Virus record (IMG/VR): IMGVR_UViG_3300020050_010858
From: an uncultured virus (IMG/VR IMGVR_UViG_3300020050_010858)
Lineage: Duplodnaviria > Heunggongvirae > Uroviricota > Caudoviricetes
Length of the DNA stretch: 64,000 bases
Direction: 5' to 3' (one strand)
In this document: piece after piece, positions 8,364-51,831 of the stretch
Layout: every line of letters begins with the position of its first letter
Position numbering within the stretch: the stretch's first letter is position 1
Program-made: the position numbers and the translations under genes
The notes under the pieces: generated by a model
Seen by the model: only the letters and a program-made list of their open reading frames with translations
Told to the model about the DNA's origin: nothing
Database searches by the model: none

Positions 8364-8999
8364 TGAACACATCTATCTACCAAACCTACGACGACTTTTT
8401 AAATCGGACCGATAAAGAATCCAACGGAGTATCTACCTCGTTCGCTGAGACTAATCCTAATTGGGAGGCGAACAACGAAACTAATAAAGGGTGTTGGAAC
8501 TGCTCCGACTGCTCCGACTGCTCCCGCTGCTCCGGCTGCTCCGCCTGCTCCCGCTGCTCCCGCTGCTCCGACTGCTCCGGCTGCTCCCGCTGCTCCCGCT
8601 GCTCCGACTGCTCCGCTGCTCGGCTGCTCCCGCTGCTCCGACTGCTCCCGCTTGAAAGACGCAAGACCCGTAGAGGGCTCAAACGCGAACACTGTCCCAG
8701 AAATTCCAGTCATAGAGAATATTCACACGAAAGTTTTTGAAGCGTGTAGCAATCCGAACGCACTTGACATGGGAAACTGGCACACATGCGAAACGACCCA
8801 TTGTCGCGCAGGTTGGGTTGTTACGCTCGCCGGCGAAGCAGGGAAGAAACTTGAAGCGTTTCACAACACCGCCCTGGCTGCATCTTTGATTTACAAAGCC
8901 AGCTCACCGTTGCCAGTTACGATGCCTCGGTTCTATGAGACTGTACCGCAAGCAATGGCAGACATGAAACGCCTGGCAGATTTGGAAAATCTTACATAA
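8363..8999 (+). pseudogene. Cys-Ser-X repeat protein with TTHCRAGW domain, frameshifted within the repeat
   Basis: 17 TGCTCCnnC units at 8501-8651; two units are 8 bp (8609-8624). Confidence 0.7.
8501..8651 (+). repeat. 9-bp tandem repeat TGCTCC(GAC/GGC/CGC)
   Basis: Read directly. Confidence 0.95.
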
Positions 9000-9295
9000 G
9001 AGGTTGTTATGACAGGCAAATTGAACTTGCGTAAAGGTGGGGAGGTTAATGCGTGAAAAAATCAATTCAGCTTTGTCTTGGTGTGTTGTGTGACCCTCTT
9101 TCAAAACAATTGCGCGGTTCAGGGTGTTCTAAACATCGGATAGCGATCTGGCAACAAGTGAGCGATTCGATAAGTCTGCTGTCAATCAAAGGCTATATCA
9201 CGCCTTCGCAGGCAATGAAGGCAAAAAATAGACTCCACAAACAAATTGCTAAAACGGTTCTAGAGAAAAATCTTACATAAGAGGTTGTTATGACA
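8986..9295 (+). repeat. 29-bp direct repeat (8986-9014, 9267-9295) containing dif-like sites
   Basis: AAAATCTTACATAAGAGGTTGTTATGACA occurs twice. Confidence 0.9.
9053..9280 (+). CDS. Small basic hypothetical protein between the direct repeats
   Basis: GGAGG RBS and GTG start. Confidence 0.55.
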   Translation: MKKSIQLCLGVLCDPLSKQLRGSGCSKHRIAIWQQVSDSISLLSIKGYITPSQAMKAKNRLHKQIAKTVLEKNLT

Positions 9296-9499
9296 AGTAG
9301 AGAAATGAAGCCGGCGAGCAAAAAGGCTCAAATGCTAATAGATCGCCTAACGTTAACCACCGCTTTACGATTTCCTGAAAAAGAATTAGAAGCTGAAGAG
9401 AAAGCAAAAGCCGATTTTCGCTGTCATGAAGCAGAACATGCGCTTTTACAGTACATCGCAAAGCTGGAAAATAAACTGACGCAAGCCGATGGAGGATGA
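9290..9499 (+). CDS. Hypothetical protein
   Basis: GAGG RBS and ATG. Confidence 0.5.
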   Translation: MTSREMKPASKKAQMLIDRLTLTTALRFPEKELEAEEKAKADFRCHEAEHALLQYIAKLENKLTQADGG

Positions 9500-9663
9500 G
9501 AGATGAGTAAGAAGAGACTGAGGGCGGCATTGCAGTCGCAGGGATTCACAGAGAAGGAAGCCGCGCACATGACGCGCTTTTCAATCATGGACCACTTCCC
9601 GACGATCATGGGCATTGGTGGTTTTGCTGTCGGTGTTACGGTTGGCCGGTTGTGGGGTCTGTT

Positions 9664-9984
9664 ATGAGTGAACCTCTCACGCCCGATCAGGAGGCGATCG
9701 GATTAGTTGAGCACGCCAGGTATATTGCGGAGTGCCTTTACCTGGAAGAAATTCCCGACGATGCGGATTTTAATTGCAGGGATATTTATGATAGACTAGC
9801 TCCCGTAGCCGACCTGATCCGCACGCTTGCAGCCAGGAACGCGGAGTTGGAGACGGAGCGCGAAGAGTATATGTTTGATAACGGTGTATATCAGGCGGGG
9901 CTTGTAGCTCGCATCCGTGAACTACAAAAGGACCTGGATCGGGATCGGGAGGAGCGGCGTGGAAATGAAAGCGAGGAAGGGTGA
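9664..9984 (+). CDS. Hypothetical coiled-coil protein
   Basis: ORF in a chain of coupled small genes. Confidence 0.45.
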   Translation: MSEPLTPDQEAIGLVEHARYIAECLYLEEIPDDADFNCRDIYDRLAPVADLIRTLAARNAELETEREEYMFDNGVYQAGLVARIRELQKDLDRDREERRGNESEEG

Positions 9985-9987
9985 GGT

Positions 9988-10752
9988 ATGAGGATTGAAA
10001 AAGATTTGGCTACGCTGCGCGGATACCTTGCCACTATAACTCCTCGCGACGAGAACCCAGACAAACTAAGAAAACATCCAGACAATGACTTCCCAGACGT
10101 TGCAGGGGTGGCATGGGAAAAGCTCGTGGAATCGATCGAGGATATTGGAATCCGGCACCCTGTCATAGCTGATATTAAAGGAATGGTTTTATCTGGATGG
10201 CAGAGGACGCGGGCAGCGGCAAAACTTGGAATCCCTGTTCCAGTCATACGAATCCCTATCATGCAAAGGGCCGTCACTCGTCATGTCATCATAACGATGA
10301 ATCTTGCAGGCAGACAGCTATCAAGCGAGCAGTTCGACAAGTTTTGGGGCGAGGCGTACGGCAAGCGCGTAGAAACGATGCTGGTCAAACAGCACTTACC
10401 GCCAGGAACAATTTCCCGGATGTTGTCCAAGGAAACCGGAATTCCTAAAACCAAGATACATAAAAGAGTCGAGGCCGCGAGAATCCAACTCGTGAAAAAC
10501 CGGTCTGATCTATCAAGTGATACCGTGCAACGCCTGATCAAGAAAGCAAAGAATCTTTTGACGCAAATGCACGAATTGCGAGACCAGTATTTCAAAGTAA
10601 GGTCCAAGATTGGGGAACACATCAAAATGACGGACACAGACTTGCCTGCGATTCAGATACGCGAGGACGATTCCCTACCTATTCCGCGCGTAGTGTTTGA
10701 GAAACATCATGGAACAAGCAAAGGCAGGCTAAAGGTAGACTTTACAAAATAG
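9988..10752 (+). CDS. ParB/Srx N-terminal domain protein
   Basis: LVESIEDIGIRHPVI...VLSGWQRTRAA..LG motif. Confidence 0.8.
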   Translation: MRIEKDLATLRGYLATITPRDENPDKLRKHPDNDFPDVAGVAWEKLVESIEDIGIRHPVIADIKGMVLSGWQRTRAAAKLGIPVPVIRIPIMQRAVTRHVIITMNLAGRQLSSEQFDKFWGEAYGKRVETMLVKQHLPPGTISRMLSKETGIPKTKIHKRVEAARIQLVKNRSDLSSDTVQRLIKKAKNLLTQMHELRDQYFKVRSKIGEHIKMTDTDLPAIQIREDDSLPIPRVVFEKHHGTSKGRLKVDFTK

Positions 10753-10941
10753 CGTATTATGTAAAGTTTTGAGTTGACGGGCTCGAGGCGGCGTGGTACG
10801 TCCTAGTTTCAACATGCTATTGCATACGATGGAGGGCCTATGTGTCGCGCTACAGGGTAAGCCTAAATGCGATTGTAAATCGAGTTTTTCGGGAGTAAGC
10901 TTTTCGCGTAAAAAAGCCAGCCACCTTAAGAAAATTAGATA

Positions 10942-11793
10942 TTGGCCGTCCCTGCTTTGGTATGTGGGGGCGGCCTCTTGACCACATCCCTCACCGTCCT
11001 GGCACCGTCCGCCCTGCCCCTCCTTCGTCGCGATGACTACGACTCTGTCATCAAGCGGTTCAACATTTTCCTTGCCGGGCGTACTGCGAACGAGGAAACC
11101 ATTCGTGAGTTTTTCAAATCCGAAAAACGGACTTACAAGGCCCGCTCGATTCAAGTTCACAAGTGCGCAATCAAAGCCGCTGTCTACAAAGCGTTTCCTA
11201 CGCACGATACGCGCATTAAAGCGGGCATGGATGAAATTTTCAAGTCTATCAAGATCCCGAAGCCGGAACCCCGGATACAATCTAAAGACCTGTTTTCTAA
11301 AAAAGAGATCCGCACAATTATCAAAGCCAGCCCCCTGCACATTGGCCTATTTATCCAAACGCTGTACGATACCGGCGCGCGCGTTTCCGAAGCTCTGTCA
11401 ATGGAATATCGAAACTGCGAAGAAACCCCGGGCGCGGTTCTCTGCAAGATTACGGGCAAGGGTAGCAAGGAGGGGGCTCTGACCCTGACGAAAAAGCTTT
11501 TCCAACAAATCAAAAAGGTGTTTGGTGGAAAGGTGTTCCTATTCGAGCACGGCGGGAAAGTGTACGGACGTCAGCACATGTGGGCAACCTGCCAGAAGTT
11601 CGGTAAGATCGCCACGGGCAGAAAGATCCATCCGCATTCATTAAGACATTCCCGCATTACGCACATGATTAAGGATGGCTTACCGCTCGGGGCCGTGTCT
11701 CGCTTTGCCAGGCATTCGAACGTAACGACTACGTTACAGTTTTACGAACATAACATTTTGGATGAAAGCGCGATTACGCGCGGGGCGCTCTAA
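10942..11793 (+). CDS. Tyrosine recombinase (XerC/D-like)
   Basis: TGARVSE, GKG.K, HSLRH, RH, TT.QFY catalytic motifs; no obvious IntI-specific insertion. Confidence 0.9.
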   Translation: MAVPALVCGGGLLTTSLTVLAPSALPLLRRDDYDSVIKRFNIFLAGRTANEETIREFFKSEKRTYKARSIQVHKCAIKAAVYKAFPTHDTRIKAGMDEIFKSIKIPKPEPRIQSKDLFSKKEIRTIIKASPLHIGLFIQTLYDTGARVSEALSMEYRNCEETPGAVLCKITGKGSKEGALTLTKKLFQQIKKVFGGKVFLFEHGGKVYGRQHMWATCQKFGKIATGRKIHPHSLRHSRITHMIKDGLPLGAVSRFARHSNVTTTLQFYEHNILDESAITRGAL

Positions 11794-12617
11794 GTCAGAA
11801 TCTCGATAATCTTTTTTTGCCAGTCTACCGAATTCCTGTAGCCCGTCGCCGCGAGGATTCGCGCAGAACTGAGAGAGCTGTCAACAGGCCTTTTCACGCT
11901 GTCCGGGGTGTTTCCTGGGTTTATCAAGTCTCCTCTATGATAGTATTCCGCAACCTTTAACGCAATGGCATACCAGGAGAGCGGGGGCGAGTTTGCGAAG
12001 TGGTAAATGCCCTGTAAGTCGCGCTCAATGGCCCTGAGCGTCACGCGCGCGAGGCTTTCCGCGTCAGTGATACAGGTGGTCAGAATATCAGTTACGGTGA
12101 AAGGGGCCCCGAGCTTAACTTGATCGGCAATGCCCTTGACAAAGTTCTTTCCGTATGGGGAGTATAGCCCGGCGGTACGGATGACGAGTGCCCCGGGGTT
12201 AAGCCTGGTCACAAGGTTTTCACCTGACAGCTTGGATCTACCGTAACGATTTAGCGGGCCGGTTTCGTCGGCTTCTATATATGGCGATCCTTTCTTTCCG
12301 TTAAAAACGTAATCCGTTGAAAACGTGACAAACTTTTTCCCCGAGGCTTTACAGATTTGAGCCAGCGAACCAGGTAACGCGCTGTTAAGCTCCTGCACTT
12401 TTTCCTCGTTGCCTGGAAGCTCTGCCCCGCGCACGTCTGTCCATGCAGCGCAATTAATGACGGTGCCGGCATCGGTGCGCTGGACAAGTCTGTAGAGAGA
12501 TCCGAAACCAGTGTCACGGATGGCAGGCGCGAATATGAGTTCAACGTCTGTTGCCAGGCTTTGAAACGTGCTCCCGAGTTGCCCCGCGCTACCGATGATT
12601 AGAATTTTGTCAGGCAT
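11790..12617 (-). CDS. rmlD: dTDP-4-dehydrorhamnose reductase
   Basis: GSAGQLG, INCAAWTDV, STDYVF.G, YGRSK. Confidence 0.92.
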   Translation of the reverse strand: MPDKILIIGSAGQLGSTFQSLATDVELIFAPAIRDTGFGSLYRLVQRTDAGTVINCAAWTDVRGAELPGNEEKVQELNSALPGSLAQICKASGKKFVTFSTDYVFNGKKGSPYIEADETGPLNRYGRSKLSGENLVTRLNPGALVIRTAGLYSPYGKNFVKGIADQVKLGAPFTVTDILTTCITDAESLARVTLRAIERDLQGIYHFANSPPLSWYAIALKVAEYYHRGDLINPGNTPDSVKRPVDSSLSSARILAATGYRNSVDWQKKIIEILT

Positions 12618-12887
12618 TAAAAGCACGTCTTGAAAAAGTACATGAACGTTAGACCCGCAACCAGACCGCAAGCACCAAAGAACAGGTGCCACGCAATGCA
12701 CGACGCGTCATTTTCAAATTCAATCGGGGCCGGGGTAAAAGGCTTTCTCATTTGCGTTTTCCTTTTTTCTTTGCCGCTTTCTTCGCAGTCTTCTTTTTGA
12801 CCGTTTTACGTTTCGATTTTTCGGCGGGCTGTGTTTCTACTTCGGACATTTGATTTTCCTTAAGGGTGTTTTTGAAATGTGGTTGAA

Positions 12888-13229
12888 TCATAGGAGTGAT
12901 AGAATCCAGATAAGGGCCACGCCCCCGCCACCTATCCAGAAGCCTTGCAGGAATCCAGAATTTACTTTTGACTGGTTCGCGCCCGCAATTTCTGCATTTT
13001 GCAAAGCAGCGGTTGCAAGTTCAGCGGTGCACTTCTTATTGGCTTGCTGGATAGCTTCGTAAGTATGTGCTCGCACAGCACGCCCGGCCAACTTCTCCGG
13101 GTAGTATTCAGGGGGGTCGAGTTCATCGGCTACGCAGTGTTCTTTTGCAACGTCCCCGACGTCAACCGGCGACTGTGTTTGCACGACCGCGCAGGAAGTG
13201 AACGCCAGAAACAAAAGAACGAATCTCAC
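12888..13229 (-). CDS. Lipoprotein, possible o-spanin-like
   Basis: MRFVLLFLAFTSC lipobox; follows the endolysin. Confidence 0.45.
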   Translation of the reverse strand: MRFVLLFLAFTSCAVVQTQSPVDVGDVAKEHCVADELDPPEYYPEKLAGRAVRAHTYEAIQQANKKCTAELATAALQNAEIAGANQSKVNSGFLQGFWIGGGGVALIWILSLL

Positions 13230-13402
13230 TTTCTGCCCTCTAATACGCGTTTGAGTTCGGGGGCGCATTCGACGGGCTTGTCCGCCGTTGCATTCGAGCC
13301 CCACTTGTAGCCGCCGAAAAATCCCGCACCCAGCCCGAGGGCCAGCGACAAAATCGCGGACAAAAGAAGGGTCATTTTTGACACGTTTTCTGGCATATTC
13401 AT
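13226..13402 (-). CDS. Small membrane protein of the lysis module
   Basis: Single TM helix. Confidence 0.45.
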   Translation of the reverse strand: MNMPENVSKMTLLLSAILSLALGLGAGFFGGYKWGSNATADKPVECAPELKRVLEGRK

Positions 13403-14037
13403 TTTCCTTTTATTTGAGCGAGTCGGGTTTGCACCTGACTTCGATACCACGGGATTTGTGAGGTGCCGTTGTACAGGGCTATAAAGCCATCAATGTTTCC
13501 AGCCTGCAAGGATTTTACGAGCGCGCCGTTACTGTAGGCAGGCAAGAAATGTATAAAAGCGGCAACCTGGTTATCCTTGCTTTCCTGCATGGCTTTGAAC
13601 ATGGCTTCAGACGAATCAAACCCGGAAGCCTTCGCATTGAAACCCATAATCTGAGGGAAGCCCATTGAAATCGAATTGTAGGCCGCCGCGGCGTTTTTCT
13701 CCCGGGCCCATTCAAATACCATGTACTCCCGTTCCTGGCCTTCGTGCTTTGTGCGGGTTGCCGGGTCGTCTCCGATGTGAATCCACTTCCACGGAGAATT
13801 TACATCAAGACGAAACCGCTGGTCCGCCAGTTGCTGGGTCGTCATCCCAGGTATGTAAAAATTTTCCTTAAATGCCGGAGCGTACCGAATGAACCATTGA
13901 GGTTCAAAACGGATTAGCAATTTTCCGTCAGGACCAAAAGCCTGGCCGCCTGACTCTACCTGCACGACGGCAAGTAGAAAGTCAGGATCAATGCCCCATT
14001 CCTTAGATTTTGTCTGGATTGTTTGTAGCAGGTCCAT
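13399..14037 (-). CDS. Endolysin, N-acetylmuramidase (DUF3380-like)
   Basis: AVVQVESGG, IRFEP, SISMG.PQIMGFN, YNG. Confidence 0.85.
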   Translation of the reverse strand: MDLLQTIQTKSKEWGIDPDFLLAVVQVESGGQAFGPDGKLLIRFEPQWFIRYAPAFKENFYIPGMTTQQLADQRFRLDVNSPWKWIHIGDDPATRTKHEGQEREYMVFEWAREKNAAAAYNSISMGFPQIMGFNAKASGFDSSEAMFKAMQESKDNQVAAFIHFLPAYSNGALVKSLQAGNIDGFIALYNGTSQIPWYRSQVQTRLAQIKGK

Positions 14038-14353
14038 TCATGTTTTCCTTTGGTGCTTCGGGTTCCTGGGCGTTCGGGTTCATAATGTCGGGCACCTGGT
14101 CTATTTTCGTCCCATTCTTTGCCATCAAAAGAGTGTAGGCCATGCCGGGCAGATGAGTGATAAACCATCCAACCCCGCGACCAAGCACGGCAACAAGAAT
14201 TCCGACGATAGACAATGCGCCTGCGAGCGTTACATCCCAGGCAATTATGAAATCCAGTTTAGCGTACGTGACGCCTATCGCTGACAGAATGAGCGCAACC
14301 CCGCCGACAATGTACGGCAAGTGACCCTTTTTCAATTCGGTTGTGTCTGGCAC
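14003..14353 (-). CDS. Putative holin
   Basis: Multiple TM helices adjacent to the endolysin. Confidence 0.55.
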   Translation of the reverse strand: MPDTTELKKGHLPYIVGGVALILSAIGVTYAKLDFIIAWDVTLAGALSIVGILVAVLGRGVGWFITHLPGMAYTLLMAKNGTKIDQVPDIMNPNAQEPEAPKENMNGPATNNPDKI

Positions 14354-14356
14354 GCG

Positions 14357-14692
14357 TTACGCTCCTTTTTTTAGTACTTCAGCAATTCGTGAGGGAAGGC
14401 TTACCAGGTGGCCCCCGAGGTCGTCAAGCTTCCCTTTAATTTCTGCGATGTCTTCGCGTGAATCGACAAAATGGGCTTCGAGGGAAGCGACCCTTTCGCG
14501 CACGCCGACAAAATCCCCGAGCATTTCAGAAGTTGCCATATTCACCGCCGCGCTAACCTGCATGCTCAGTTTTTCGTCCAGGCGGTTTGAATGCCATTTG
14601 AACAGAAAGAAGACTCCACCCCAGGCAGTAAGAAAAAGCCCCCCTGCCGTACTGATAACCGATATGAAATTCGTTTTCAGCCATTCATCCAT
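14357..14692 (-). CDS. Membrane coiled-coil protein (holin/antiholin-like)
   Basis: N-terminal TM followed by coiled coil. Confidence 0.45.
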   Translation of the reverse strand: MDEWLKTNFISVISTAGGLFLTAWGGVFFLFKWHSNRLDEKLSMQVSAAVNMATSEMLGDFVGVRERVASLEAHFVDSREDIAEIKGKLDDLGGHLVSLPSRIAEVLKKGA

Positions 14693-14705
14693 TCCCGCGT
14701 AAGAA

Positions 14706-16076: not shown

Positions 16077-16087
16077 TGTCTGTACCT

Positions 16088-18567: not shown

Positions 18568-18848
18568 TAAGCCACCTGCGCGTTATACTGTTTTTTCAAT
18601 GGGTCGTACACGACCGAAATGCAGGTGGCGTACTTGGTAATAATGCGGTTTATGTCGAGTGCGCGGTCCTGGGTCGATTGCGAGATTGTCCATATCAATT
18701 GATTGCGCCCGAAGTACGGGTCAGCATCCCAGGAACCCTGAATACAGCGAAGCTCACTTTTCGCGTTTTGCACCGCTGGCGTTCGGGTCGTTTGCAAATG
18801 GTTGTTTGCGTCGGTCGTAAAATTTCCATTATCGTCGATCTGGATCAT
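18567..18848 (-). CDS. Baseplate wedge small subunit (Mu gp46/gp25-like)
   Basis: LR.IQGSW..DP.FG motif; synteny. Confidence 0.6.
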   Translation of the reverse strand: MIQIDDNGNFTTDANNHLQTTRTPAVQNAKSELRCIQGSWDADPYFGRNQLIWTISQSTQDRALDINRIITKYATCISVVYDPLKKQYNAQVA

Positions 18849-21008: not shown

Positions 21009-21011
21009 ACG

Positions 21012-23456: not shown

Positions 23457-23457
23457 G

Positions 23458-32218: not shown

Positions 32219-32656
32219 TCATTTACTCCAGTCTGGCCAGGTGCGGTCGCGCTTGTTCATAATCGGACCTGAGACGCCCCAATCAATTCCAAGCGCCGGG
32301 TCGTCCCATCGTAAGCCCCGTTCTGCTTCAATGACTCGGGGCTCATTCATTTCATAATGTAAAACAGTGTTCGGCAGTAACGTCAAATAGCCCACGCCGA
32401 AACCTTTCTCGACAGGGAGGATCGCGCCCGCCTGTAAAATATCGTTCGTGTGTGATCCGGTTGCCAGATTCACAATTACCAGGCGCACAGCTCCGGATAT
32501 GACGCGGACAATCTTAGCGCACGCATGGGGGACTTCCTGATAGTGAATACCGCGTAACGTATGCGGACGCGGATTTGTTACAATAACGGAAAAATCGTTT
32601 TCGTGACTTCCAATTTCACGCGCTCGCCAGACAAAACCCCTTGCGTCAAAGTACAT
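32219..32656 (-). CDS. rmlC: dTDP-4-dehydrorhamnose 3,5-epimerase
   Basis: D.RG, TLRGIHYQ, K.VRV.SG, E.GLRWDDPALGIDW. Confidence 0.9.
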   Translation of the reverse strand: MYFDARGFVWRAREIGSHENDFSVIVTNPRPHTLRGIHYQEVPHACAKIVRVISGAVRLVIVNLATGSHTNDILQAGAILPVEKGFGVGYLTLLPNTVLHYEMNEPRVIEAERGLRWDDPALGIDWGVSGPIMNKRDRTWPDWSK

Positions 32657-34356: not shown

Positions 34357-34358
34357 CG

Positions 34359-34741: not shown

Positions 34742-35092
34742 TCAAGCTCTAATTTGCACTATGTCAGCAATCAATTCATGCGCGTAATTTTCCGGCACCC
34801 TTACCCCTTTCACTGTCCTGAAGTGTTTGCCGGTTAATCTGAAAAACAAATAGCCGGACATTACGGCATGGTTCCCTTTTCGCGCATCGCGCTCTCTACT
34901 CTTTACACTGGTGTGCCCCATACCATTACCGTCTAACTCAATCAGGATTTTCGTTTCTCCCCGGGTCAGCCTGACGTCATATTCGAAACGCTCGCCGGGG
35001 ATTGTCTTTTGAGTCTCGTACTTGAACCCGGCTTTCTGCAAAGGCTTTTTGAAATTCAAATCAAAACAGATTTCCAGTTCTGACTTTTTCAT
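34742..35092 (-). CDS. Vsr/DUF559-like endonuclease
   Basis: RFEYD...LIELDG...H......D..K.N.A. Confidence 0.75.
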   Translation of the reverse strand: MKKSELEICFDLNFKKPLQKAGFKYETQKTIPGERFEYDVRLTRGETKILIELDGNGMGHTSVKSRERDARKGNHAVMSGYLFFRLTGKHFRTVKGVRVPENYAHELIADIVQIRA

Positions 35093-35313
35093 TTCTTCTT
35101 TCCCCGGGGAAGAAAAAGAAAACGGTCCTCGACGCGAACGCGTTTGACAGTGTAAGCCTGACACTCGGCATTCACTCGCTTGCCGGTCTTCATGCTTGAA
35201 AGCCATGTATGGATGGCGCTAACACTGGTTTCGAAATGCTTTGCAAGTTCGGCAACCGTGAAACCGCTTTTCCGCGATGGAAGTTTTGACGGGTCTAAAA
35301 GAATTCTACTCAT
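35089..35313 (-). CDS. HTH DNA-binding protein
   Basis: FTVAELAKHFETSVSAIHTWL. Confidence 0.65.
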   Translation of the reverse strand: MSRILLDPSKLPSRKSGFTVAELAKHFETSVSAIHTWLSSMKTGKRVNAECQAYTVKRVRVEDRFLFLPRGKKK

Positions 35314-35362
35314 GTAGAACACTAACGGCGAGTGTTGCACAGTTTCAAGCGAAATTTTCTTT

Positions 35363-35596
35363 CTATTTCTTAACCTCCTTAAGAGTCGCTTTCTTAAATA
35401 CGTAACGCGTTTCGGTCTTTACTTGCTCTACAAAGTATCCGACTGAACTGGAATTTATACCCCTGCCAGATTTCAAAGAGGACAGCCAACCATTTATGAC
35501 GTTTGGTGTCGTTCTAAAAAGCAAAGCCAGCTCCCATTTCGTGTAGCCGTTCTTTTTAGCGAGTAGTTTGGCGGGGTTAAGTTTTGAAGTTCTCAT
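35363..35596 (-). CDS. HTH DNA-binding protein, paralog of the adjacent gene
   Basis: YTKWELALLFRTTPNVINGWLSS. Confidence 0.6.
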   Translation of the reverse strand: MRTSKLNPAKLLAKKNGYTKWELALLFRTTPNVINGWLSSLKSGRGINSSSVGYFVEQVKTETRYVFKKATLKEVKK

Positions 35597-35656
35597 AACC
35601 GTCAATATGAACAGCGTAAATGTAAAGTAAACAAAATTTATGTGTAAGATAAGCCT

Positions 35657-35795
35657 CCCATTATCCCACAATCCCAAAACGGTTCTACCCTTCTGTATAC
35701 ACCCCCTATACTAACATATGTATACATACACATTTGTTAGTATACATACCTTATACTTTAAATATAAGAAAGAGAAGGGATTATGGGATAGTGGG
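35657..35795. other. Nested inverted repeats around an AT-rich core at the transcriptional divergence point (possible origin)
   Basis: 19-bp IR (17/19 match), 10-bp perfect IR, 12-bp palindrome. Confidence 0.5.
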
Positions 35796-40308: not shown

Positions 40309-40342
40309 CAAGTTTCTCCAGAATAAGAGATTGTGACCATTG

Positions 40343-40378
40343 GCCCCGGGTTTCCTGCCAGATCCCGGGGCATTTTTT
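40343..40378 (+). terminator. Rho-independent terminator
   Basis: GCCCCGGG...CCCGGGGC stem followed by a T run. Confidence 0.75.
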
Positions 40379-40575
40379 CCCGGAGGGTAACGAATTGAAA
40401 AACGTGTGGCTATTCATTGCGGCGCTTTACACGTTGCTCGGCATTTTGCTTATCACTGATCGCTTGCAATGCGGGCGCACCATGTGCTACGCGAAAGCGC
40501 CGCACAGCAATAACGTTTATTTTACCTGGGATTGCAGCCCGGAGACGTTTCGGAAAAAGTGAAAAAGGAAAAGAA

Positions 40576-42489: not shown

Positions 42490-42664
42490 ATCAAGGGGTG
42501 CGAGACTTATTAAGACTTCTGGTCTACACTAAAGCTAGCGGGATGTTTGTCGGATCTTTGGAGCATTCAGACGTTATTCGGGATTTAAACACGATTGATG
42601 ATTTCCAGCGTTTTTGTGAACGAAACGGAATTGAAATCGAAATCAAGTTGAAAAGCGAGCAAGA

Positions 42665-44797
42665 ATGAAGCCGCGCGAAATAACGAGTCAGTTTCTTTCT
42701 GACATTTACCGGGGGCTCGGGGGCGAAATCGTTCTGGTTTCGGCGCTGTCCCCTTTCCGCTGTGAAGTCGTCCCCGTTTTGAAGCTTGCAGACGCGGCAA
42801 AGAAAATCGATTTCACGAAAGAGCTTTTCTTTTCTGTCGCTTCCTACAAAGCCGGGGTTGTCCAGAAATCCGGCAAGGGTCGTGGCAAGGGCGCATTGTC
42901 TGGCGTTGAAATCCTGCATTTCGACTTTGACAAAAGGAAGTTTGACGACCCGTCTAAGTACTTTCAGGCGAAAGGCTTCCCCGAACCGTCCTACGCTTTC
43001 ACGCGTGCGGATCGTTTTCATGTTTACTATTTGCTTTCCGAACCCTGCACCGATATGCAGGATTACGAACAAACTCTAAAGCGTCTGGCCAAACTGGTTA
43101 GCGCCGATGTGCTCCCCGCGCACCCCGCCGCGTTAATGCGCGTCCCGTTCACAGCCCATAAGAAGAAAGGAAAGACGGGCCCCGGATATACGCCAGTCAT
43201 TAGCAACCGGAAACGTTACCCGCTTTCAACGTTTAAGAACATCGGAGCGGCTACAAAACAAACTGAACCGGGAAGCCCTGAAGCACAGCGCCCGGCTGGC
43301 GACTGGTTAGAAAAGATCCTTCTGAAAAGCCGGGCAAAGATTGAGCCAGGGGCCGGGCGTTCGTCCGCGCTCTACCAGTTCGCGCTACGTTGCCGCGACT
43401 TCGATATGGACGAAAGGCAGGCGCAGGGGTTAGCCCGTCGGTTCAATGAATTGTACTGCGAACCCCCGGAAGCGTCGCCGGTCGTGGTTCACCAGGTATC
43501 AAGTGCCTACAGGTATGCAAAGCATCCCCCGGGGCGCTACCTGTCAGAGAAGCCCGAACGTCAGGCGCTCAAGTTCGAGGCTGACTGCAAGATTTCAGAA
43601 AACCTGGCAGACTTTGTTTTCATTGCTGAGGCTGAAATCCTGATAAACGTAAAGAATGGACTCCGTTACACCAAAGCCGCCCAGATAGAAAACGCAATCT
43701 GTGCCGCAACAGGGGTTAAAACTTCGCTGCAATACGCGCTCACGTTTCGGCTTATTGCTCTGAAAGACCGTCTGGCGTTTCGCCCGGATGAGGAACCCGA
43801 ATTTTTGCTCGCTGACGTTTCGTACTTTAACACGTTCGAGAAAGTTCGGTTAATTGAGAAAACGAAAGTACGTAAAGCGGACGTTTCCACGTTTGAGAAG
43901 CACTTGCAGTACCTGACGAACAATGACGAAGAGTTCGAGCACTTGCGAAAGTGGTTAGCTTGCGCGCTCCTGTTACCGGGACAAAAGATCAAGCACGCGT
44001 TGCTTTTGATTTCTACCCATGAGGGAATCGGGAAAAGCGCGCTCGAAGCTTTGTCAAAGAATATCCTTTGTAGCGTGCGGGAACAATCCTACGTCATCCA
44101 GGCGACCAATACAGAGATTGCGCGCGGGAATAACTCGTGGATTGAATCGAAGTTTTTGACGTTCGTCCATGAGCTGGGGCAATCGGAGAAATACGCGGTC
44201 ATGGACCAGCTTAAAAACTGGATCACTGAGCCCCGCGTCAGGATCTCTGACAAGTACGTCCGAAGCTACGAAATAGAGAACTTCTGTAATTTCGTATTCT
44301 ACTCGAATGCGGTCAACGCCCTGCCCATTTCCGGGACAGACCGCCGGTTCTTTATCGTGGTCAACCGCAAGGTGCCGATGGAGGCCGCATACTATCAGAA
44401 CCTGTTTCAGACCTTTGACGAGGGCGTGTATTCAATCGTGGACTACCTGGGCAAGCATGCCGGGAAACTCGACGTTAACGCCCCGCCGCCGGTCACAGCG
44501 TCCAAACTGGAACTGCGAAATTATAGCAAAAACGAGTTGACCATTTTCCTTGATGAGTGTTTAAGTGATTCAGCTTACAAAGATTTTTTCAGCTCCGGGT
44601 TCACGATCCGCGCGCTGGCAGAACGCATACAGGATTCGGCGCACGCGTCCAACATCCGGTTCAGCCAGAAACAGGCGGCAATGTGGCTCAGGGAAAACAA
44701 CTACTTTGTAAGGGAACTGCACCAGGACGGAAGGCATGTAAGGCTTTACAAGTCCGACAACGTGGTCAGGGGTAAGTTCAAGGAAGGGAAGAAATGA
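42665..44797 (+). CDS. Primase-helicase (AEP, PriCT and P-loop domains)
   Basis: HFDFD, FHVY, MRVP; GIGKS, HE, YSN...DRRF. Confidence 0.85.
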   Translation: MKPREITSQFLSDIYRGLGGEIVLVSALSPFRCEVVPVLKLADAAKKIDFTKELFFSVASYKAGVVQKSGKGRGKGALSGVEILHFDFDKRKFDDPSKYFQAKGFPEPSYAFTRADRFHVYYLLSEPCTDMQDYEQTLKRLAKLVSADVLPAHPAALMRVPFTAHKKKGKTGPGYTPVISNRKRYPLSTFKNIGAATKQTEPGSPEAQRPAGDWLEKILLKSRAKIEPGAGRSSALYQFALRCRDFDMDERQAQGLARRFNELYCEPPEASPVVVHQVSSAYRYAKHPPGRYLSEKPERQALKFEADCKISENLADFVFIAEAEILINVKNGLRYTKAAQIENAICAATGVKTSLQYALTFRLIALKDRLAFRPDEEPEFLLADVSYFNTFEKVRLIEKTKVRKADVSTFEKHLQYLTNNDEEFEHLRKWLACALLLPGQKIKHALLLISTHEGIGKSALEALSKNILCSVREQSYVIQATNTEIARGNNSWIESKFLTFVHELGQSEKYAVMDQLKNWITEPRVRISDKYVRSYEIENFCNFVFYSNAVNALPISGTDRRFFIVVNRKVPMEAAYYQNLFQTFDEGVYSIVDYLGKHAGKLDVNAPPPVTASKLELRNYSKNELTIFLDECLSDSAYKDFFSSGFTIRALAERIQDSAHASNIRFSQKQAAMWLRENNYFVRELHQDGRHVRLYKSDNVVRGKFKEGKK

Positions 44798-45373
44798 GCG
44801 AACTTTTTGAGACGGGCCCAGGAATCGATAAAATTACGGACGTCATGAACGCGGCTTTCAAAGAAGCTCAAGAGAAAGGGGTTCTGACCATTTCCGTTCC
44901 GGTCCCTGTTCCTGCGCAATATATCGAAATATCTTTCGTGGTTGCAGGGCCGCTGGACGACTAGACAAAATATCCAATTATGTAAAGTTTTAGGAGTAAA
45001 CACGAAATGAAAGCAATCGAAGAAATCAAAAGAATCTACGACACGCCGGGCAGGCAGTGGGAAAAGGGCGCAATGCGCGGGGCTCACAATCCGAAGTCTG
45101 TTGCAAAGACTCGCCAGTCTAACTTTGACGATATGCTGAGGGAGGCCCTTTTGCTCGGGGAGCAAATCACTATTATCGATTCACGACGGGCGGCGCTGAA
45201 ATGACACCGCAACGTTTTTCGGACATCTCTAATGCTATCGTAGAGGTTGAAAAGCTCTCAATTACGCTACCCCCTGTAGACCAAAGAATTTGTACTACTT
45301 TCTGCGTAGTGCTTCGCGAGTTGCTAGCCGAAGTACCAATCACTGATGACTTGATAAAAGGGGTACCGATTCA

Positions 45374-46666
45374 ATGAAAACGTCAACGGTAATCGTCTGG
45401 AATTCGCGCGTCAAGAATCTTGATTTCTGGGCCACGATCATTTCAAGGGTCGACCCGAAGGAAACGAGCTTTACCGTTATCCACAATCTCAAGGGCTCGC
45501 CAGTTTCTTCTAAAGAAGTGCGTGAGAAAGTCGAGGCTTGCGGGGCAACCTACATTCCACGGAAGACCCCCGGCATGGACATAGGCGCATTCCAGGAAGT
45601 TTGCAGGCATAGACTCGAAGGTTTTGACTATAACTACGATTTTCTAATCTGGTTCACTGATGACTGCTTTCCAATGACGCCAGATTTCGCGCAGTCCTAC
45701 CGGAAACCTTTTTCTGACCCTGCGATGGGGCTTTCTTGTCTTGAGATTTCTTCTCAGGGGAGACGGCACGTTCGCACTACAGGTTTCGGAATTAGACGTG
45801 CAGTCGCGGAAAGTCTAACCTTTCACGTTGACCCGATTTCTACCAAGGAAGAGTGCTATGTCTTCGAACACCGGGACAAGCGCGCGACGCTGTATTTGCA
45901 GATCCTGGCGAAAGGCTTAAAGGTCGCTCAGATTGCGCCGATACGGCAGTCTCCGGTCTGGGATTCAGGCGGGGGCGGGCACGGCTGGGTCAACCGGCGA
46001 GAAGAGTTTGAAAAAGTCTGGGACCTTAAAAAGAAGGGTTCGAAAGTTTTGATCCTCGCAACGTGTTTTGAAAGGTTCCCCCCGGTTGTCGCGTCTTTCC
46101 TTGCCCAGACTTACCATAACTGGGAATTACGTTTAATCCACAACGGACCTGCCCCGACGCTCTACCCGAAATTTGATGACCCACGAATCATATTTGAGGA
46201 AACAGACCAGAACAGGGGAAATTTTGGACACCCTAACCGGGAGCTATTCCTTAACCGGATTCGCGCGGGCACGCTGGCCGGGGATTACGCGCTCATTACG
46301 AATGATGACAACTACCACGCACCGTTTTTCCTTGAAAAACTGGTCCGGGCGCTGGACGAAAACCCGGACGCCCCCGGCGCTTACTGTTCGGCAATGGTCC
46401 ACAATTACGCGGGCATCAAAGGCGATACGACGGTCAGGATGGAAGACGGTCACGCCGTGGATGGCTACGGGGTAATCAATGTAAAACCCGAGCGCGGACA
46501 TATGGACGTTGCTGGGGTCCTCATTCGCGCGGAAATGGCCGGGCGTGCGGGCTGGCCCGACTACACGCATTCCAGTGATTGGACGTACCTCGACCGGGTA
46601 GCACAGCAAAACGGAGGGTGGGGAAAATTCAAAGTCGTCCCTGGCGTTTTGCTTGTGCATAATTGA
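45374..46666 (+). CDS. Two-domain glycosyltransferase (C-terminal GT2)
   Basis: GMDIGAF, TDD; AQTY.NWEL, TNDDNY, SDW. Confidence 0.75.
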   Translation: MKTSTVIVWNSRVKNLDFWATIISRVDPKETSFTVIHNLKGSPVSSKEVREKVEACGATYIPRKTPGMDIGAFQEVCRHRLEGFDYNYDFLIWFTDDCFPMTPDFAQSYRKPFSDPAMGLSCLEISSQGRRHVRTTGFGIRRAVAESLTFHVDPISTKEECYVFEHRDKRATLYLQILAKGLKVAQIAPIRQSPVWDSGGGGHGWVNRREEFEKVWDLKKKGSKVLILATCFERFPPVVASFLAQTYHNWELRLIHNGPAPTLYPKFDDPRIIFEETDQNRGNFGHPNRELFLNRIRAGTLAGDYALITNDDNYHAPFFLEKLVRALDENPDAPGAYCSAMVHNYAGIKGDTTVRMEDGHAVDGYGVINVKPERGHMDVAGVLIRAEMAGRAGWPDYTHSSDWTYLDRVAQQNGGWGKFKVVPGVLLVHN

Positions 46667-46686
46667 AAGCCGGGGGAGAATGAAAA

Positions 46687-47907
46687 ATGGGTGGTTACAG
46701 TCCTTCACATTGGAGATTTGAGGAAGAAGAATTGGAAAGAGTGGAAAGAGTGGAAAAAGTAAAGAAGCACACCCAATGCAGGTTATGCAGCGGACCCCTT
46801 GAGCTGGTTTTAGATTACGGTGCAATGCCGCTTGCAAACGCCCTTGCCGATTCGCGTGACGCCGCCCTTGTAAGCGAGCTGTTTGAACAAAAGCTAATGT
46901 TTTGCAACGAGTGCTTGCTGGGTCAGCTTTCCGTAGTCGTTAGCCCGGAAACTCTTTACAAGGATTACGCGTACAGGTCCGCAACGTCAGGCGCTTTTCG
47001 GAAACATTGAGAAGGGCTCGCACGGGAGCTTGTAGCATGGGGGCCAATCGAAACGGTGCTGGACATTGCGGGCAATGACGGAACCATGATAAAAGAAGTT
47101 CTGAAAAGAAAACCGGTTCAGGGTTTCGTGTGCGACGTTACGCAGGACGAGAACCCGGAGGACTACGTGAAAGTTAAACGCTTCTGGAACGAGGAAACTG
47201 CAAGCGACTTTTTGAAAGAACACGGAACCGTTGACGCGGTAATCGCTCAAAACGTCGTCGGTCACGTTGACCACGTAATTGAATTTTTTAAGGCTGTGCG
47301 CAAAGTCCTGACCCCCGGCGGGGTCTTTGTTGTAGAGGTGCCGTCTTTCCCCGAGCTTGTAAGATCCGGGGCGTTTGACACGGTCTATCATGAACACCTG
47401 TCCTATTGGACCGCTACGGCGATGCGCGCGCTTGCGGAAAAGTCCGGGCTTGTTCTGTGCAGCACCGAATTTTCAAACGTGCATTGCGGGTCGTTCAGGT
47501 TCTGGTTGACTGACCAGCGTTTCGCCAGCGTGCACGGGCAATCGATCGAGCTGGCGGAAAGGGAATTTTTTCAAGGCCCCGGATGGGGGGAGTCAGTTTT
47601 CCAGAAGTTTGGGGCGGGGCGATTTTTTCAGGAATGGTTGCGCAATGAAATAGTAATTGGCGTAACGGCGAGCGCAAAGGCAACAGTCCTTTTAAATGCC
47701 TACGCTGTGCCCGTTGACTACGTAGTGGATAGCGCCGCATCAAAACACAGAAAGTTTATTCCCGGGGTTGGCCTCGAAATAAAACCATTCACGCGTGAAA
47801 ACCTTATTGGTGCAACGGTGGCTTTGATCCTGTCTCGTAACCTGGTCGGGGAACTTACCGAACAGTTAAGGCAGAACGGTTTTAAGGGCATAATTGTAGC
47901 CGTTTAA
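46687..47907 (+). pseudogene. NDP-sugar C-methyltransferase interrupted by one in-frame TGA (47008-47010)
   Basis: CRLC...MPLAN..C..C Zn site; LDIAGNDG, YHEHLSY, ASAKA; both ORFs are in the same frame. Confidence 0.8.
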
Positions 47908-47978
47908 AGCTGAACTTTTTTTCCTTCTCTTAACTTTTTTTTGCTTGCTATTTGTCCCGCCCATGCTATACTGTTTGC

Positions 47979-48395
47979 ATGGACACAAAAAAGGTAGTTA
48001 TTGGCAGATATTACCGGGAACCGCTCAGGAAGTTTCTGACGGCGTTAAACGTGGCGGCGGTCAAATCCCGTACGCTAACCCAGACAGAAAGAGCCGTTCG
48101 CAAAGTCGAATACTCAATCGAGCACGACTTTAAAGACGGGTTCGCCCCAAGATCCCACGGGCTGGATGCTCAGTCATTGGCCCGGCGGGAGCTTGACAAA
48201 CTGAATCAGGTTTTGCCCGATGATTTGAAACAGGCAGAACTTGACCAGGTGCGGGCACAGCTTGTAGCGGCGGAAACGCTGGTTGCAGAATTGCAACGCC
48301 GGGTCACTGAGCTGGACCATTCACGCGGGTCTATGGAATTCATCGCCAGACAGCGAGAAATTCAGGAAGCGCGCGCGAGGGCAAACGCATCATGA
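47979..48395 (+). CDS. Hypothetical coiled-coil protein
   Basis: TTGCTA-16-TATACT promoter directly upstream. Confidence 0.5.
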   Translation: MDTKKVVIGRYYREPLRKFLTALNVAAVKSRTLTQTERAVRKVEYSIEHDFKDGFAPRSHGLDAQSLARRELDKLNQVLPDDLKQAELDQVRAQLVAAETLVAELQRRVTELDHSRGSMEFIARQREIQEARARANAS

Positions 48396-49375
48396 GAACG
48401 GTAATACTGGCCATTCTGGTAATCTGTGCCGGGTGTGATTCTGCAAAGAATCCCCCGGTTCAGTTTCCCTTTCCTGCCTCCGTACTCGAAAGCATGCCAT
48501 ACGAGACGCACCCACTTGTCCAGAAGCAACGCGCCCTCCCGGCGATCAATGGTGAGACGACCCCGATAGTATGGAATGGCCGGATCGTAACCATCACGAC
48601 AGGGCTCTATTTCATGGACCTGGAAACCGGCGCAATCATCGGGACGCATCCGGTCGACATGAATCAATTCGCGCTCATCAGTGCGATCGTTCATAGTGGC
48701 CGCGTTTACGTGTTCGGATCGGATCAGTTCATGCTTGACGGTCGATATGCAACGCAACCCGGGAACGCCGTTCAGATGATCTCGTCCGCGGACCTGGTAA
48801 CGTGGACGGCGCCGGTCGAGGTTTTGCGTGCGCCGGACAACATCCGCATTTTGAATACTTCCGTTGCCCCTGACGCTAACGGGTTCGTCATGATAATGGA
48901 AATGAATACCGAAAACGAATGGGGCACCTACCACGAAATGTTTGCGCGGTCTCCTGATTTGCTCGCATGGACGTTTACCGGTGGCATTCTTGAGCCGGCT
49001 CGATACTCGTCATGCCCTTCGATCCGTTACATGCCGGACGGGTTTTACTATGTAATTCACGACTTGCAGTATTCCCGAGCGCAAGCGGCTTTTGTTTCCA
49101 GAAGTGCCGATCTTATCGTCTGGGAACACCAGACCAGCCCTTATGCCGTAGTGTCACCGAAAAACGCCCCCGGGTTTGAATGGAAGGACTCAGCAAACTC
49201 GTTTACACCAGGGCCCCGGATCGCGCCTGATAACAATTCAGACGTTGACCTGGTAGAGTTTAGTGGGCAGACGCACGTTATTTACAATTATGGCGATCAG
49301 TCTACATTCGGCGGGCAAGCGTTCGCAGTCTATGACGGACCGATGCAGAACTTTTTCCAGGAGTTTTTCAAATGA
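48392..49375 (+). CDS. Lipoprotein with glycoside-hydrolase-like beta-propeller
   Basis: Lipobox CAGC; repeated S.DL..W Asp-box-like motifs. Confidence 0.65.
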   Translation: MRTVILAILVICAGCDSAKNPPVQFPFPASVLESMPYETHPLVQKQRALPAINGETTPIVWNGRIVTITTGLYFMDLETGAIIGTHPVDMNQFALISAIVHSGRVYVFGSDQFMLDGRYATQPGNAVQMISSADLVTWTAPVEVLRAPDNIRILNTSVAPDANGFVMIMEMNTENEWGTYHEMFARSPDLLAWTFTGGILEPARYSSCPSIRYMPDGFYYVIHDLQYSRAQAAFVSRSADLIVWEHQTSPYAVVSPKNAPGFEWKDSANSFTPGPRIAPDNNSDVDLVEFSGQTHVIYNYGDQSTFGGQAFAVYDGPMQNFFQEFFK

Positions 49376-50671
49376 GCCAGCATCTAAAAGAACAGCTAGA
49401 ACAGGCGCGGGAATATGCCCAAGCTTTGTACGATAACGGGGACGATACATCAGACGAGATTCGTGCTGCTTGGATTAGGAGCCATCGGAAAATCCTCGAC
49501 TCCATCCTGCACGACATGAGCCGCCCGTTTGATCCTACTGGGTGCGGGTTCGAGAATGTAGAGAGCGGCGGAATACTGAATCGTCAACAATGGGCAAATG
49601 GAATGTATGCGATTACCCTCGATGGTGGATACGGATTGATTGAAGAAATCGGCGGATCATCTCAATGGGAATTCCCATGGCCAGAATCCCACTTCGACGG
49701 CATCCAGTTGCTAATCAGTCTCGGGGTGGTGGAGAAATGAAAGACGTATTGAAATTTTTGGGTCTGCTTTTGGCTATGCTATCCCTCCCGTGGTTGTTCT
49801 ACGTTGCAGATGTTCTCACGCGTGGGCCAGTCGAATGCGAAACGAACATTGACGGCATTACGTATTGCAGGCCCGCCCCCATGACCCCACTTACAGCGCA
49901 CGAGCAGCAGCAGTGGAAACAGCTACGCCTTGAAGGCTATAAGGTAGAGCAGTGCGGAACGCTCGTAACGCAGAACGGCAAAGCCTGGCGCTGGTATAAT
50001 CCGATTGAGAAAGGATTTGCTTACCTGAATCGAAACGCAGCAATTCGAGATTGCATCAAGAGGAAACACAGATGACCCCCACCCTCCAGGACTTCTATGC
50101 GGAGTGCGTGGCGAGTTTGGAACAGGAAGAGAAGCATTCTTTATCTACCATCTTCGTGCTGAAACGTTTAGCTCTGGCAGTATTGATACCGGAAACTGAG
50201 GCGATTCATGTGATGGTAGGCTACCCAGACAGTCTGGACTTGCTTTATGGAGGTAAGGACATTCGCCGCGCCGCCTCCATTCTCTACGGGATCACCGGGA
50301 ACGAGAACTGGCTGAGGTTTGTCAGTAATGCGGGGAGCGTTTGAGAAATGAGTGTCAAGCCATACAAATATCTGGTGCAGGCCGTAGTCGATGGCGACAA
50401 GGAAGCATGCAAAGAAATTATCGAACTGATTGGCCGCCAGAGGAAAGCGACGGCGATTCGTCTGCGGTGCGAAAGAGCCCTCGTCAGGACGTGGCGCAAC
50501 AGCTACTATCACGAAACGCGCCGCTTGGGCAGACACCTGGATGCAATCGCCGAAGAGATCGAAGAAACCATGTCCGACGACAACAAGGAAGACATGATGA
50601 GGGTTCACGCGAAACGGCGCGGGGAAATATTACGCGAGGCCTTTCCGGTCTCAGGAGGTAGTGAGAGATGA
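49372..50671 (+). other. Four small coupled hypothetical CDS (49372-49740, 49737-50075, 50072-50344, 50348-50671)
   Basis: ATGA overlaps. Confidence 0.45.
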
Positions 50672-51792
50672 TGAAGAGAACCAAGATCAAGCCCACACTC
50701 TCCCGCGTTAAGCAGGTTCTCGACTACAAACCTAAATTTATTAACGCGGATTGCGTTCATGCTCTAGCAGAAATGTCTGCAAGCTCCGTCGATTCGTGCA
50801 TAGTAGATCCACCTTACGGTTTAGGGATTCACGGTTTAGAATGGGACACAGACGTATTCAATGCGTCTGTGTGGTCGCAGGTTCTACGGGTGGCAAAACC
50901 TGGATGTCATCTTTTAGCATTCGGATCAACTAGAAAGTTTCACCGCCTGGTCACGTCTATAGAGGACTCAGGATGGGAAATCCGTGACACGCTCGGTTGG
51001 ATCTACGCGACTGGTCTCCCAAAGAATTTCAATATCAGCAAGGGTATAGATAAGTTTCGCAGGAGAGATTTTATCGAAGCAGCCATGAAGATGGGAATGC
51101 AAATACCAGGAAATAGATTGCACGATTGGACTAAATCGACCCATGCACCATCTGATAAATGGTGGGCCGAATTCAAAAAATTTATAACACCCGAACAATG
51201 GATTTCCGTGGAGAGAAAAGTAATAGGCACCAGAAACAAAGGTAAGGCTATCTTTGGGAGTTGTGATGGAGAATACGAGATAACCGAATCTAAACACCCT
51301 GACGCACGTAGATGGGATGGTTTCGGCACAGCTTTGAAGCCGTGTTGGGAACCAATCTCATTGGCGCGTAAACCAGTGGAAGGCTCCGTAGTAATGAATG
51401 TTTTGGATCATGGTACCGGCGGATTGAATATAGATGGATGCCGATTCGATGGAAAATTTCCTACCAACATCGTTAATGACGGTGACACAGGTATTTTTAC
51501 CGAAAATGTCAGCAGGTTCTTTTACTGCCCAAAACCATCTAAAATCGAGCGGCAGGGGAATACGCATCCAACGATTAAACCGGTAGAATTGATGCGTTGG
51601 TTGTGTCGGTTGATCACGCCACCTGGAGGTACTGTCCTAGATATTGCGAGCGGCTCAGGTACGACTGGTATTGCTTCATATCTTGAAGGATTCAATTCTA
51701 TTTTGATTGAAAGAGATGGAGTGACATTTCTTGAGGGAAAGAAAAGATTTGCTAATTACGTTCGTTCACATAATGGACCAGACAAAATATGA
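50668..51792 (+). CDS. DNA N4/N6 methyltransferase
   Basis: DPPYG, HPT.KP, GSGTTG. Confidence 0.88.
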   Translation: MMKRTKIKPTLSRVKQVLDYKPKFINADCVHALAEMSASSVDSCIVDPPYGLGIHGLEWDTDVFNASVWSQVLRVAKPGCHLLAFGSTRKFHRLVTSIEDSGWEIRDTLGWIYATGLPKNFNISKGIDKFRRRDFIEAAMKMGMQIPGNRLHDWTKSTHAPSDKWWAEFKKFITPEQWISVERKVIGTRNKGKAIFGSCDGEYEITESKHPDARRWDGFGTALKPCWEPISLARKPVEGSVVMNVLDHGTGGLNIDGCRFDGKFPTNIVNDGDTGIFTENVSRFFYCPKPSKIERQGNTHPTIKPVELMRWLCRLITPPGGTVLDIASGSGTTGIASYLEGFNSILIERDGVTFLEGKKRFANYVRSHNGPDKI

Positions 51793-51831
51793 GCATATGT
51801 AAGATTTTTTAGAAAAAAGGAGAATTGAGAA

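Follow-up and report, generated by a model that had tools for sequence, protein, structure and literature searches.

Dif-like 11-7-11 sites beside an Xer-type recombinase in the accessory run of an uncultured tailed phage

Why a tailed phage would carry five short dif-like sites among its accessory genes is the question raised by a 64,000-nucleotide stretch of the IMG/VR virus record IMGVR_UViG_3300020050_010858 (Caudoviricetes), referred to here as the window. Each site has two 11-base-pair (bp) arms around a 7-bp spacer, and a first-pass annotation had read the five, one of them just upstream of a tyrosine recombinase, as a second, Xer-type gene-cassette system of this phage. The Xer character is supported by an arm known from predicted dif sites, an intact recombinase and strain breakpoints at all five sites; a working exchange of cassettes does not follow from the data. 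What the data show are junctions kept within a mosaic, without singling out site-specific exchange; the sites are best classed as a variant of Xer-type module junctions, for which an enzyme and a cassette function are proposed below.

The sites and their order in the phage

The sites, the recombinase and the stretches between them in the phage that carries them (phage B) are listed in their order in the reassembled genome, with window coordinates and strand.

44960-44988 (+): site 1, ACTAGACAAAA-TATCCAA-TTATGTAAAGT, with the D-like arm on the right
44989-51776 (+): block between sites 1 and 2, with small open reading frames (ORFs), a GT2-like glycosyltransferase, a C-methyltransferase, genes of unknown function and an N6/N4 DNA methylase
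51777-51805 (+): site 2, ACCAGACAAAA-TATGAGC-ATATGTAAGAT, with the D-like arm on the right
51806-52556 (+): first CxxC-repeat gene, with the C-terminus of phrog_31265; phage B stops near 52535 in this contig
8363-8999 (+): second CxxC-repeat gene, which ends in site 3 and lies downstream of the first copy in the assemblies G001 and G002
8989-9017 (-): site 3, with the D-like arm on the minus strand; on the plus strand the spacer GAGGTTG holds a Shine-Dalgarno sequence and the right arm an ATG
9018-9269 (+): 252-bp unit between the same-spacer sites 3 and 4, with ORF 9053-9280; predicted to be excisable as a 281-bp circle
9270-9298 (-): site 4, spacer and orientation as in site 3, 281 bp away; the two form an identical 29-bp repeat
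9299-10738 (+): block between sites 4 and 5, with three small ORFs and a ParB-like gene (9988-10752)
10739-10767 (+): site 5, ACTTTACAAAA-TAGCGTA-TTATGTAAAGT, with the highest arm symmetry of the five (10/11); the recombinase lies 210 bp downstream
10978-11793 (+): tyrosine recombinase of 271 amino acids, two-domain Xer/Cre type

All five 29-bp sites, and the placement of one of them just upstream of the recombinase, were found as first annotated. Oriented by the best-conserved arm, each reads as a C-like arm, 7 bp and a D-like arm. The D-like arm is TTATGTAAAGT in sites 1 and 5 and in the relatives, TTATGTAAGAT in sites 3 and 4 and ATATGTAAGAT in site 2; it is near-invariant, with one departure in five copies once an allele of its outer triplet is set aside, and the C-like arm is variable. 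Arm symmetry reaches 6-8/11 in sites 1-4. The spacers TATCCAA (site 1), TATGAGC (site 2), GAGGTTG (sites 3 and 4) and TAGCGTA (site 5) form four classes; only sites 3 and 4 share one, and other pairs are identical at no more than 4/7 positions in either orientation. The spacer is 7 bp long in all five sites and in the relatives, and other spacer lengths do not score. Sites 3 and 4 are inverted relative to sites 1, 2 and 5, and the genes of the run are all on the plus strand.

The reported overlap with stop codons is also found at every site, each of which holds the stop of its upstream ORF (TAG 44962-44964, TGA 51790-51792, TAA 8997-8999, TAA 9278-9280 and TAG 10750-10752, in the order of the sites). 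These stops begin at site positions 3, 14, 9, 9 and 12, and a frame-locked overlap was rejected on account of these varying positions. The overlap at site 5 was likewise rejected as a property of ParB: metagenome runs X6, X7, X8 and X10, described below, have other DNA between ParB and site 5, from 74 to ~350 letters where measured. Site 4 in turn provides the ribosome-binding site (RBS) and ATG of ORF 9290-9499.

On both strands, a consensus pattern gives 11 matches (the five sites twice and a match with three mismatches at 12852) and a shuffle mean of 0.39, a count that is circular since the pattern was built from the sites themselves. The sites came up as two families, D2 and D3, when repeats were sought de novo. 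Leave-one-out matrices, run over both strands of the 73.5-kb record with spacers of 4-10, scored the held-out sites at 29.3, 26.5, 19.6, 24.0 and 26.4 bits, each above its best non-site (17.1-20.0), and a matrix built from the window only found a single 11-7-11 site, at 27.0 bits, in each of two phages (G003 and G004) with a 52%-identical recombinase. From these three results, the sites are real beyond the circular test. Among 80 recombinase loci, none passed 23 bits with the window-only matrix besides the phage's own locus and those of G003 and G004. A weak dif-like match with a 6-bp spacer at 12853-12880 (-) scored 17-20 bits and was the top non-site in most scans.

In the predicted-dif table of PMC3025954, as far as it was available, TTATGTAAAGT turns up as an arm 31 times and TTATGTAAGAT is missing. 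Leptospira dif is given there mostly as ACTTCCCATAA-6-TTATGTC(A/C/G)..T; its arms come near the C-like arms of the phage sites, with a 9/11 match between the XerC arm ACTTCCCATAA and the left arms of the relatives' site and of site 4, and the D-like arms are off by at least 3/11. An exact-site scan of 185,579 species genomes returned eight loci, none of them in spirochaetes, which means that, at this pattern, it is none of the listed host dif sites. The scan for the AGAT arm allele returned this phage alone, and a loose viral scan gave 89 loci, mostly lone AT-rich matches regarded as chance-like without a formal null.

The recombinase had been assigned to ORF 10942-11793. Its Xer-type character and its position beside the sites stand, and its start is moved to TTG 10978, giving the protein of 271 amino acids (P0002). 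PF00589 is the only Pfam family that matches it. The catalytic residues R135, K161, H220, R223, H246 and Y256 are kept and are invariant or nearly so in 16 family members. The closest solved relative by profile is the archaeal Xer 4a8e (E 5e-28), and a structure model with a mean predicted local distance difference test (pLDDT) score of 86 has a fold that matches IntI4, Cre, XerH and archaeal Xer; in the model, the chain accommodates a core-binding and a catalytic domain and leaves no room for an arm-binding domain. Sequence and model thus support an intact Xer/Cre-type enzyme, and recombination of the sites is predicted.

Named relatives of the recombinase come from Leptospira (39-41% identity), a Leptospira extrachromosomal element (27.5%) and a 36-kb Brachyspira plasmid (34%), where the gene also adjoins rhamnose genes. 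Upstream of 20 recombinase-family loci, core matches of at least 14/16 were found in this phage, G003, the Leptospira element and locus L105. The like sites of the last two stand ~100 bp upstream of the gene, with core matches of 15/16 (0/60 shuffles) and 14/16 (1/60 shuffles), respectively, and the Leptospira dyad is also more symmetric than most shuffles (5/300). A metagenome scan found four close recombinase loci, two of which have only ~200 bp upstream, and none was scored by the window-trained matrix. Separately, locus L104 has an 11-7-11 dyad at ~4360 (8/11 symmetric), directly downstream of a 53%-identical recombinase on a contig that does not look like phage.

The window itself is most likely a chimera of two phages, as its gene content and composition suggest. 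The part from ~8.3 to 52.5 kb is a myovirus-type genome of ~44 kb (terminase, portal, sheath, baseplate, PolA, primase, helicase) that contains all five sites. The flanks have a second replication gene set (DnaB, Sak4, RusA) and a distinct trinucleotide signature, and an ORF at 64080 resembles, as judged by eye, a second terminase. In G001 and G002, independent IMG/VR assemblies (~99% identical), the flanks are missing: in G001, 52136 is followed by 8499, the join falling within the 9-bp CxxC repeat, and G002 continues to 52535, then a short ORF and then 8305. As both close the inner phage without the flanks, the true order is primase, sites 1, 2, 3, 4 and 5 (44960, 51777, 8989, 9270, 10739), recombinase, within 9.3 kb in G001. 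The sites thus lie in a single accessory run of ~9.5 kb that ends at the recombinase. The spread over 43 kb (8989..51805) first reported is thus an effect of the contig, and the idea of sites scattered along 43 kb of one phage was rejected on the G001/G002 junctions and the chimeric flanks. A matrix scan found no site in the flanking phage. The attC-like array at 57.9-62.4 kb belongs to the other phage of the chimera, so that calling the sites a second cassette system of the same phage is most likely wrong.

Positions ~8300 and ~52535 are the probable joins of the two phages, through common accessory genes. The two CxxC genes (8363-8999 and 51832-52556) are paralogous, with long tandem repeats of 9-bp units, and in the window each has a frameshift within its repeat; the reading frame is intact in the single fused copy of G001 and in the first copy of G002, and the frameshifts are probably assembly slips.

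Relatives, strains and neighbouring genes

Whole-record counts gave five sites in G001, two in G002 (whose contig ends before site 3) and one each in G003 and G004. The last two are complete and carry the recombinase; their site is placed after a terminator, with one gene between it and the recombinase. Both lack ORF 44794-44964 and site 1, with the primase abutting the homologue of 45007. Recombinase and site are thus both present in G001, G003 and G004. None of 10 more distant relatives (five at least 90% complete) has a tyrosine recombinase, and a site scan of nine of them, with a matrix that included the G003 site, gave a best score of 19.4 bits, none reaching 20, against 29.6-32.7 for the sites. 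Single-protein locus searches with the primase and with ParB returned this phage alone.

Similar dyads were seen outside this group. Close to its end, the unrelated phage contig G005 (L008) contains three 11-7-11 dyads (167, 1993, 2732), near-perfect and with arms of the XerD type, and its 38%-complete record yielded no tyrosine recombinase. Metagenome-assembled genomes of Dehalococcoidia (L093, L095, L096 and L097, forming G006, and L092) have perfect 11-7-11 dyads of two spacer classes on separate contigs, one of which adjoins a recombinase-like fragment.

Contigs from six public metagenome runs were compared with the accessory run of G001; X6, X7, X8 and X10, from three studies, were informative, and X1 and X3 gave short pieces only. 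In the 12-kb contig of X7, the ORF before site 1 is replaced and homology is back 1 bp before the left arm. In site 2, X7 (base 8) and X6 (base 4) part from the reference within the right arm; one X6 contig does so in site 3, again at base 8 of the right arm. Site 4 survives in X7 and X8 as a 26-bp island with new genes on either side. Site 5 is retained with replaced flanks in X6, X7, X8 and X10; in X6 and X10 it forms, with 12 upstream bases, a 38-bp island, with other sequence from base 8 of the right arm. Five breakpoints thus fall at the boundary between the inner eight and outer three bases of an arm (site 2 in X7; site 3 in X6; site 4 in X7/X8; site 5 in X6 and X10), and which outer-triplet allele is present goes with the flanking gene. 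Such triplet switching is what a crossover in the spacer would produce.

The first-pass annotation had proposed, as a check, to see whether breakpoints coincide with the sites. They do, each of the five sites having one inside it or no more than 1 bp away, but with no excess over site-free junctions. By position, 0.55 piece ends of X7 would be expected no more than 5 bp from a site, and 4/29 (compiled by hand, among the matches listed) were counted. The fair null compares gene junctions, and there breakpoints of X7 occur at 4/5 site junctions and 9/14 site-free ones, so site-specific swapping is not shown. Other short linkers of the form GGAG..GAGA(A/G)ATGA were observed four times in the accessory run (L001 ~5812-5834, 6136-6154, 7303-7319 and 8492-8505) and not in 32 kb of core genes.

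Searches with the terminase, sheath, primase, GT2 and RmlD proteins gave no informative named relative, and because of this the spirochaete link comes from the recombinase alone. Among other genes of the phage, rmlD, rmlC, the GT2-like gene and a sugar C-methyltransferase (11790-12617, 32219-32656, 45374-47907), partly conserved in G003/G004, possibly serve the glycosylation of DNA or virion. At 46687-47907, an in-frame stop splits the zinc-binding and methyltransferase domains in the window and in G001, and a single ORF is present in G003/G004. Two paralogous small ORFs resembling helix-turn-helix (HTH) proteins lie in tandem at 35089-35340 and 35363-35677 (-), the second being absent in G001 and G002. 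Clusters of inverted TGGGAT-like repeats in the divergent region (35657-35790, and L183 10757-11300), also found in G003, are candidate origin iterons.

How the sites may work

Here it is proposed that the phage recombinase acts on the sites, with site 5 as the original site of multimer resolution and the remaining four as points of exchange addressed by their spacers, a reading that we put forward with reserve, at somewhat short of an even chance. Four recombinase subunits would bind two sites and cleave at the spacer borders, and would need matching spacers. The ancestral single site would resolve multimers of a circular or replicating genome, as members of the recombinase family on spirochaete plasmid-like replicons would, and site 5 is likely the working resolution site. 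Additional copies would be kept by their differing spacers from recombining with one another in the same genome; the exception is the pair of sites 3 and 4, which could yield the 281-bp circle. One crossover at a same-spacer site of another genome would exchange everything beyond it, and two would exchange one block; with four spacers, co-infecting relatives could swap blocks in register with no deletion of their own genes. That a single-subunit resolvase was turned in this way into an addressing system, its four orthogonal spacers being fixed slots for slot-for-slot exchange that avoids self-deletion, is the more doubtful part of the proposal.

Several observations weigh against the phage enzyme acting at these sites. 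The upstream core match is confined to four of the 20 recombinase loci; the site of the Leptospira element has a 6-bp spacer, the symmetry of the L105 dyad is not unusual (242/300 shuffles), and a dyad of the Brachyspira plasmid was dropped as support, being compatible with chance (79/300 shuffles). The co-occurrence of site and recombinase is confounded by kinship, with G003 and G004 near-identical and the HTH-like gene co-occurring too. In the strains, the upstream break at site 5 lies 12 bp outside the arm; X6 and X10 have site 5 and no cover of the recombinase start at 80% likeness; breakpoints are not enriched by gene junction; and the RBS/ATGA linkers survive as islands too. No clean joint from excision between sites 3 and 4 was seen in the metagenome-run contigs, and no host-phage (prophage) junction in those contigs or in G001-G004.

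An alternative that keeps some weight, though unlikely, is that only the recombinase-proximal site works, for resolution or attachment, and that the other four are module-borne copies with the spacers of their donor lineages, now serving as microhomology. The single site of the complete relatives, the lower symmetry of sites 1-4, the breakpoints equally common at site-free junctions, with the four linkers confined to the run, and the exonuclease and gp2.5-like annealing protein encoded by the phage are all in line with such relics. They sit less well with X7, an independent strain that retains sites 1, 2, 4 and 5 together despite different genes between them, and with a D-like arm that departs once in five copies; as the relatives' single site follows a terminator, the landing of copies at five different junctions would also be left unexplained. 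That the sites are instead substrates or binding sites of host XerC/XerD, as for the 29-bp attP of VGJphi or pdif, with the phage recombinase acting elsewhere, is judged rather unlikely. An invariant D-like arm facing a variable C-like one is the dif pattern in the available part of PMC3025954, and this asymmetry, to the cost of the proposal above, is explained no less well by a host enzyme of two subunits. A 29-bp dif-like attP recombined by XerC/XerD is described in excerpts of PMC4246890, the left arms of the relatives' site and of site 4 match the Leptospira XerC arm as given above, and G005 has its three same-arm sites with no tyrosine recombinase in the partial record. Against a host enzyme speak the distance of the D-like arms from Leptospira XerD arms and the missing TTATGTAAGAT in the dif table noted earlier, orientations that do not alternate as in pdif, the finding of no other target for the recombinase, and the lack of sites where the recombinase is missing.

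The repressor operators or phage promoters that the first-pass annotation had named as its alternative find little support and are improbable here, whether under a phage regulator such as the HTH-like ORFs 35089-35677 or otherwise. It is true that every site is followed, 0-45 bp on, by an RBS or start, or else comes before a TTGACG hexamer, that the relatives' site lies between terminator and start codon, and that the HTH-like gene (weak Pfam matches) co-occurs in G003. Yet 11 promoter-like matches were found with 10.1 expected by chance, none overlapping a site; 15 bp separate the -35-like and -10-like hexamers within the sites; sites 3 and 4 face backwards though all genes are on the plus strand; the divergent control region has no full site; and no RNA polymerase or sigma factor is among the 99 ORFs scanned. 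Arm centres 18 bp apart, moreover, suit a recombinase and not a one-turn HTH dimer.

The mosaic genomes of phages are commonly explained by illegitimate or microhomology-driven recombination. If the proposed action of the phage recombinase is true, the enzyme and its spacer-addressed sites would form a programmed exchange route akin to the dif modules of Acinetobacter, independent of the host and with a 7-bp spacer, and would provide a small recombinase whose orthogonal site variants occur in nature. They would also point to a possible role for a family of uncharacterised recombinases from spirochaete plasmids and elements. Should activity be confined to one site, what is left is a new resolvase-site pair.

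Comparison with known systems

In open-licence PMC and bioRxiv text, no report of a tailed phage with multiple dif-like sites was found. Closest in working are the pdif/dif modules of Acinetobacter Rep_3/OrfX plasmids, which use host XerC/XerD and for which module replacement via two same-spacer crossovers is proposed in the available part of PMC13141974. Several dif-like sites between accessory genes, a conserved D arm, a variable C arm and position-specific spacers are shared, as are 11-bp C/D arms (two D-like arms of the phage being identical to 31 predicted dif arms). However, the sites are not members of pdif, because their spacer is 7 bp instead of 6 bp and their orientations do not alternate, running C/D, C/D, D/C, D/C, C/D in the reassembled run. 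They also occur in a tailed phage and not on plasmids, next to a dedicated recombinase gene, and overlap stop codons, RBSs and starts.

The attP of VGJphi, an integrative mobile element exploiting Xer (IMEX), is likewise a 29-bp dif-like site in a phage genome. As described in the excerpted text of PMC4246890, VGJphi is filamentous and integrates at dif through one site and with no integrase; the present phage has five sites (one in the relatives) and its own recombinase, with no prophage junction seen, and so departs from the IMEX definition of a single dif-like site and no integrase. The promoter-early-stem-loop (PeSL) cassettes of T4-type phages share short repeated intergenic motifs and module exchange in hypervariable regions, but consist, in the portion of PMC2839356 available, of a promoter and a stem-loop, whereas the phage sites have the geometry of recombinase sites with no promoter or terminator match overlapping them. 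The XerD-binding sites (XDS) for XerD-only unloading of complexes of the structural maintenance of chromosomes (SMC) type have, like the phage sites, a full XerD arm opposite an incomplete second one; as described second-hand in the accessible parts of PMC9226527 and PMC11840125, they are chromosomal, with a centre of 5-6 bp, and the phage centre is longer, at 7 bp.

Integrons differ in that attC is a long RYYYAAC...GTTRRRY hairpin and not a 29-bp 11-7-11 dyad, and PF00589 alone matches the recombinase. With the single-subunit Xer-type resolvases (archaeal XerA/dif, XerH/difH, P1 Cre/loxP), the phage system shares the two domains, the lack of an arm-binding domain and, in this phage, a near-palindromic site beside the gene; the R-K-H-R-H-Y set, with core-binding and catalytic domains only, is that of these enzymes. 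XerA/dif, XerH/difH and Cre/loxP have one site per replicon, whereas here four spacer variants punctuate an accessory run.

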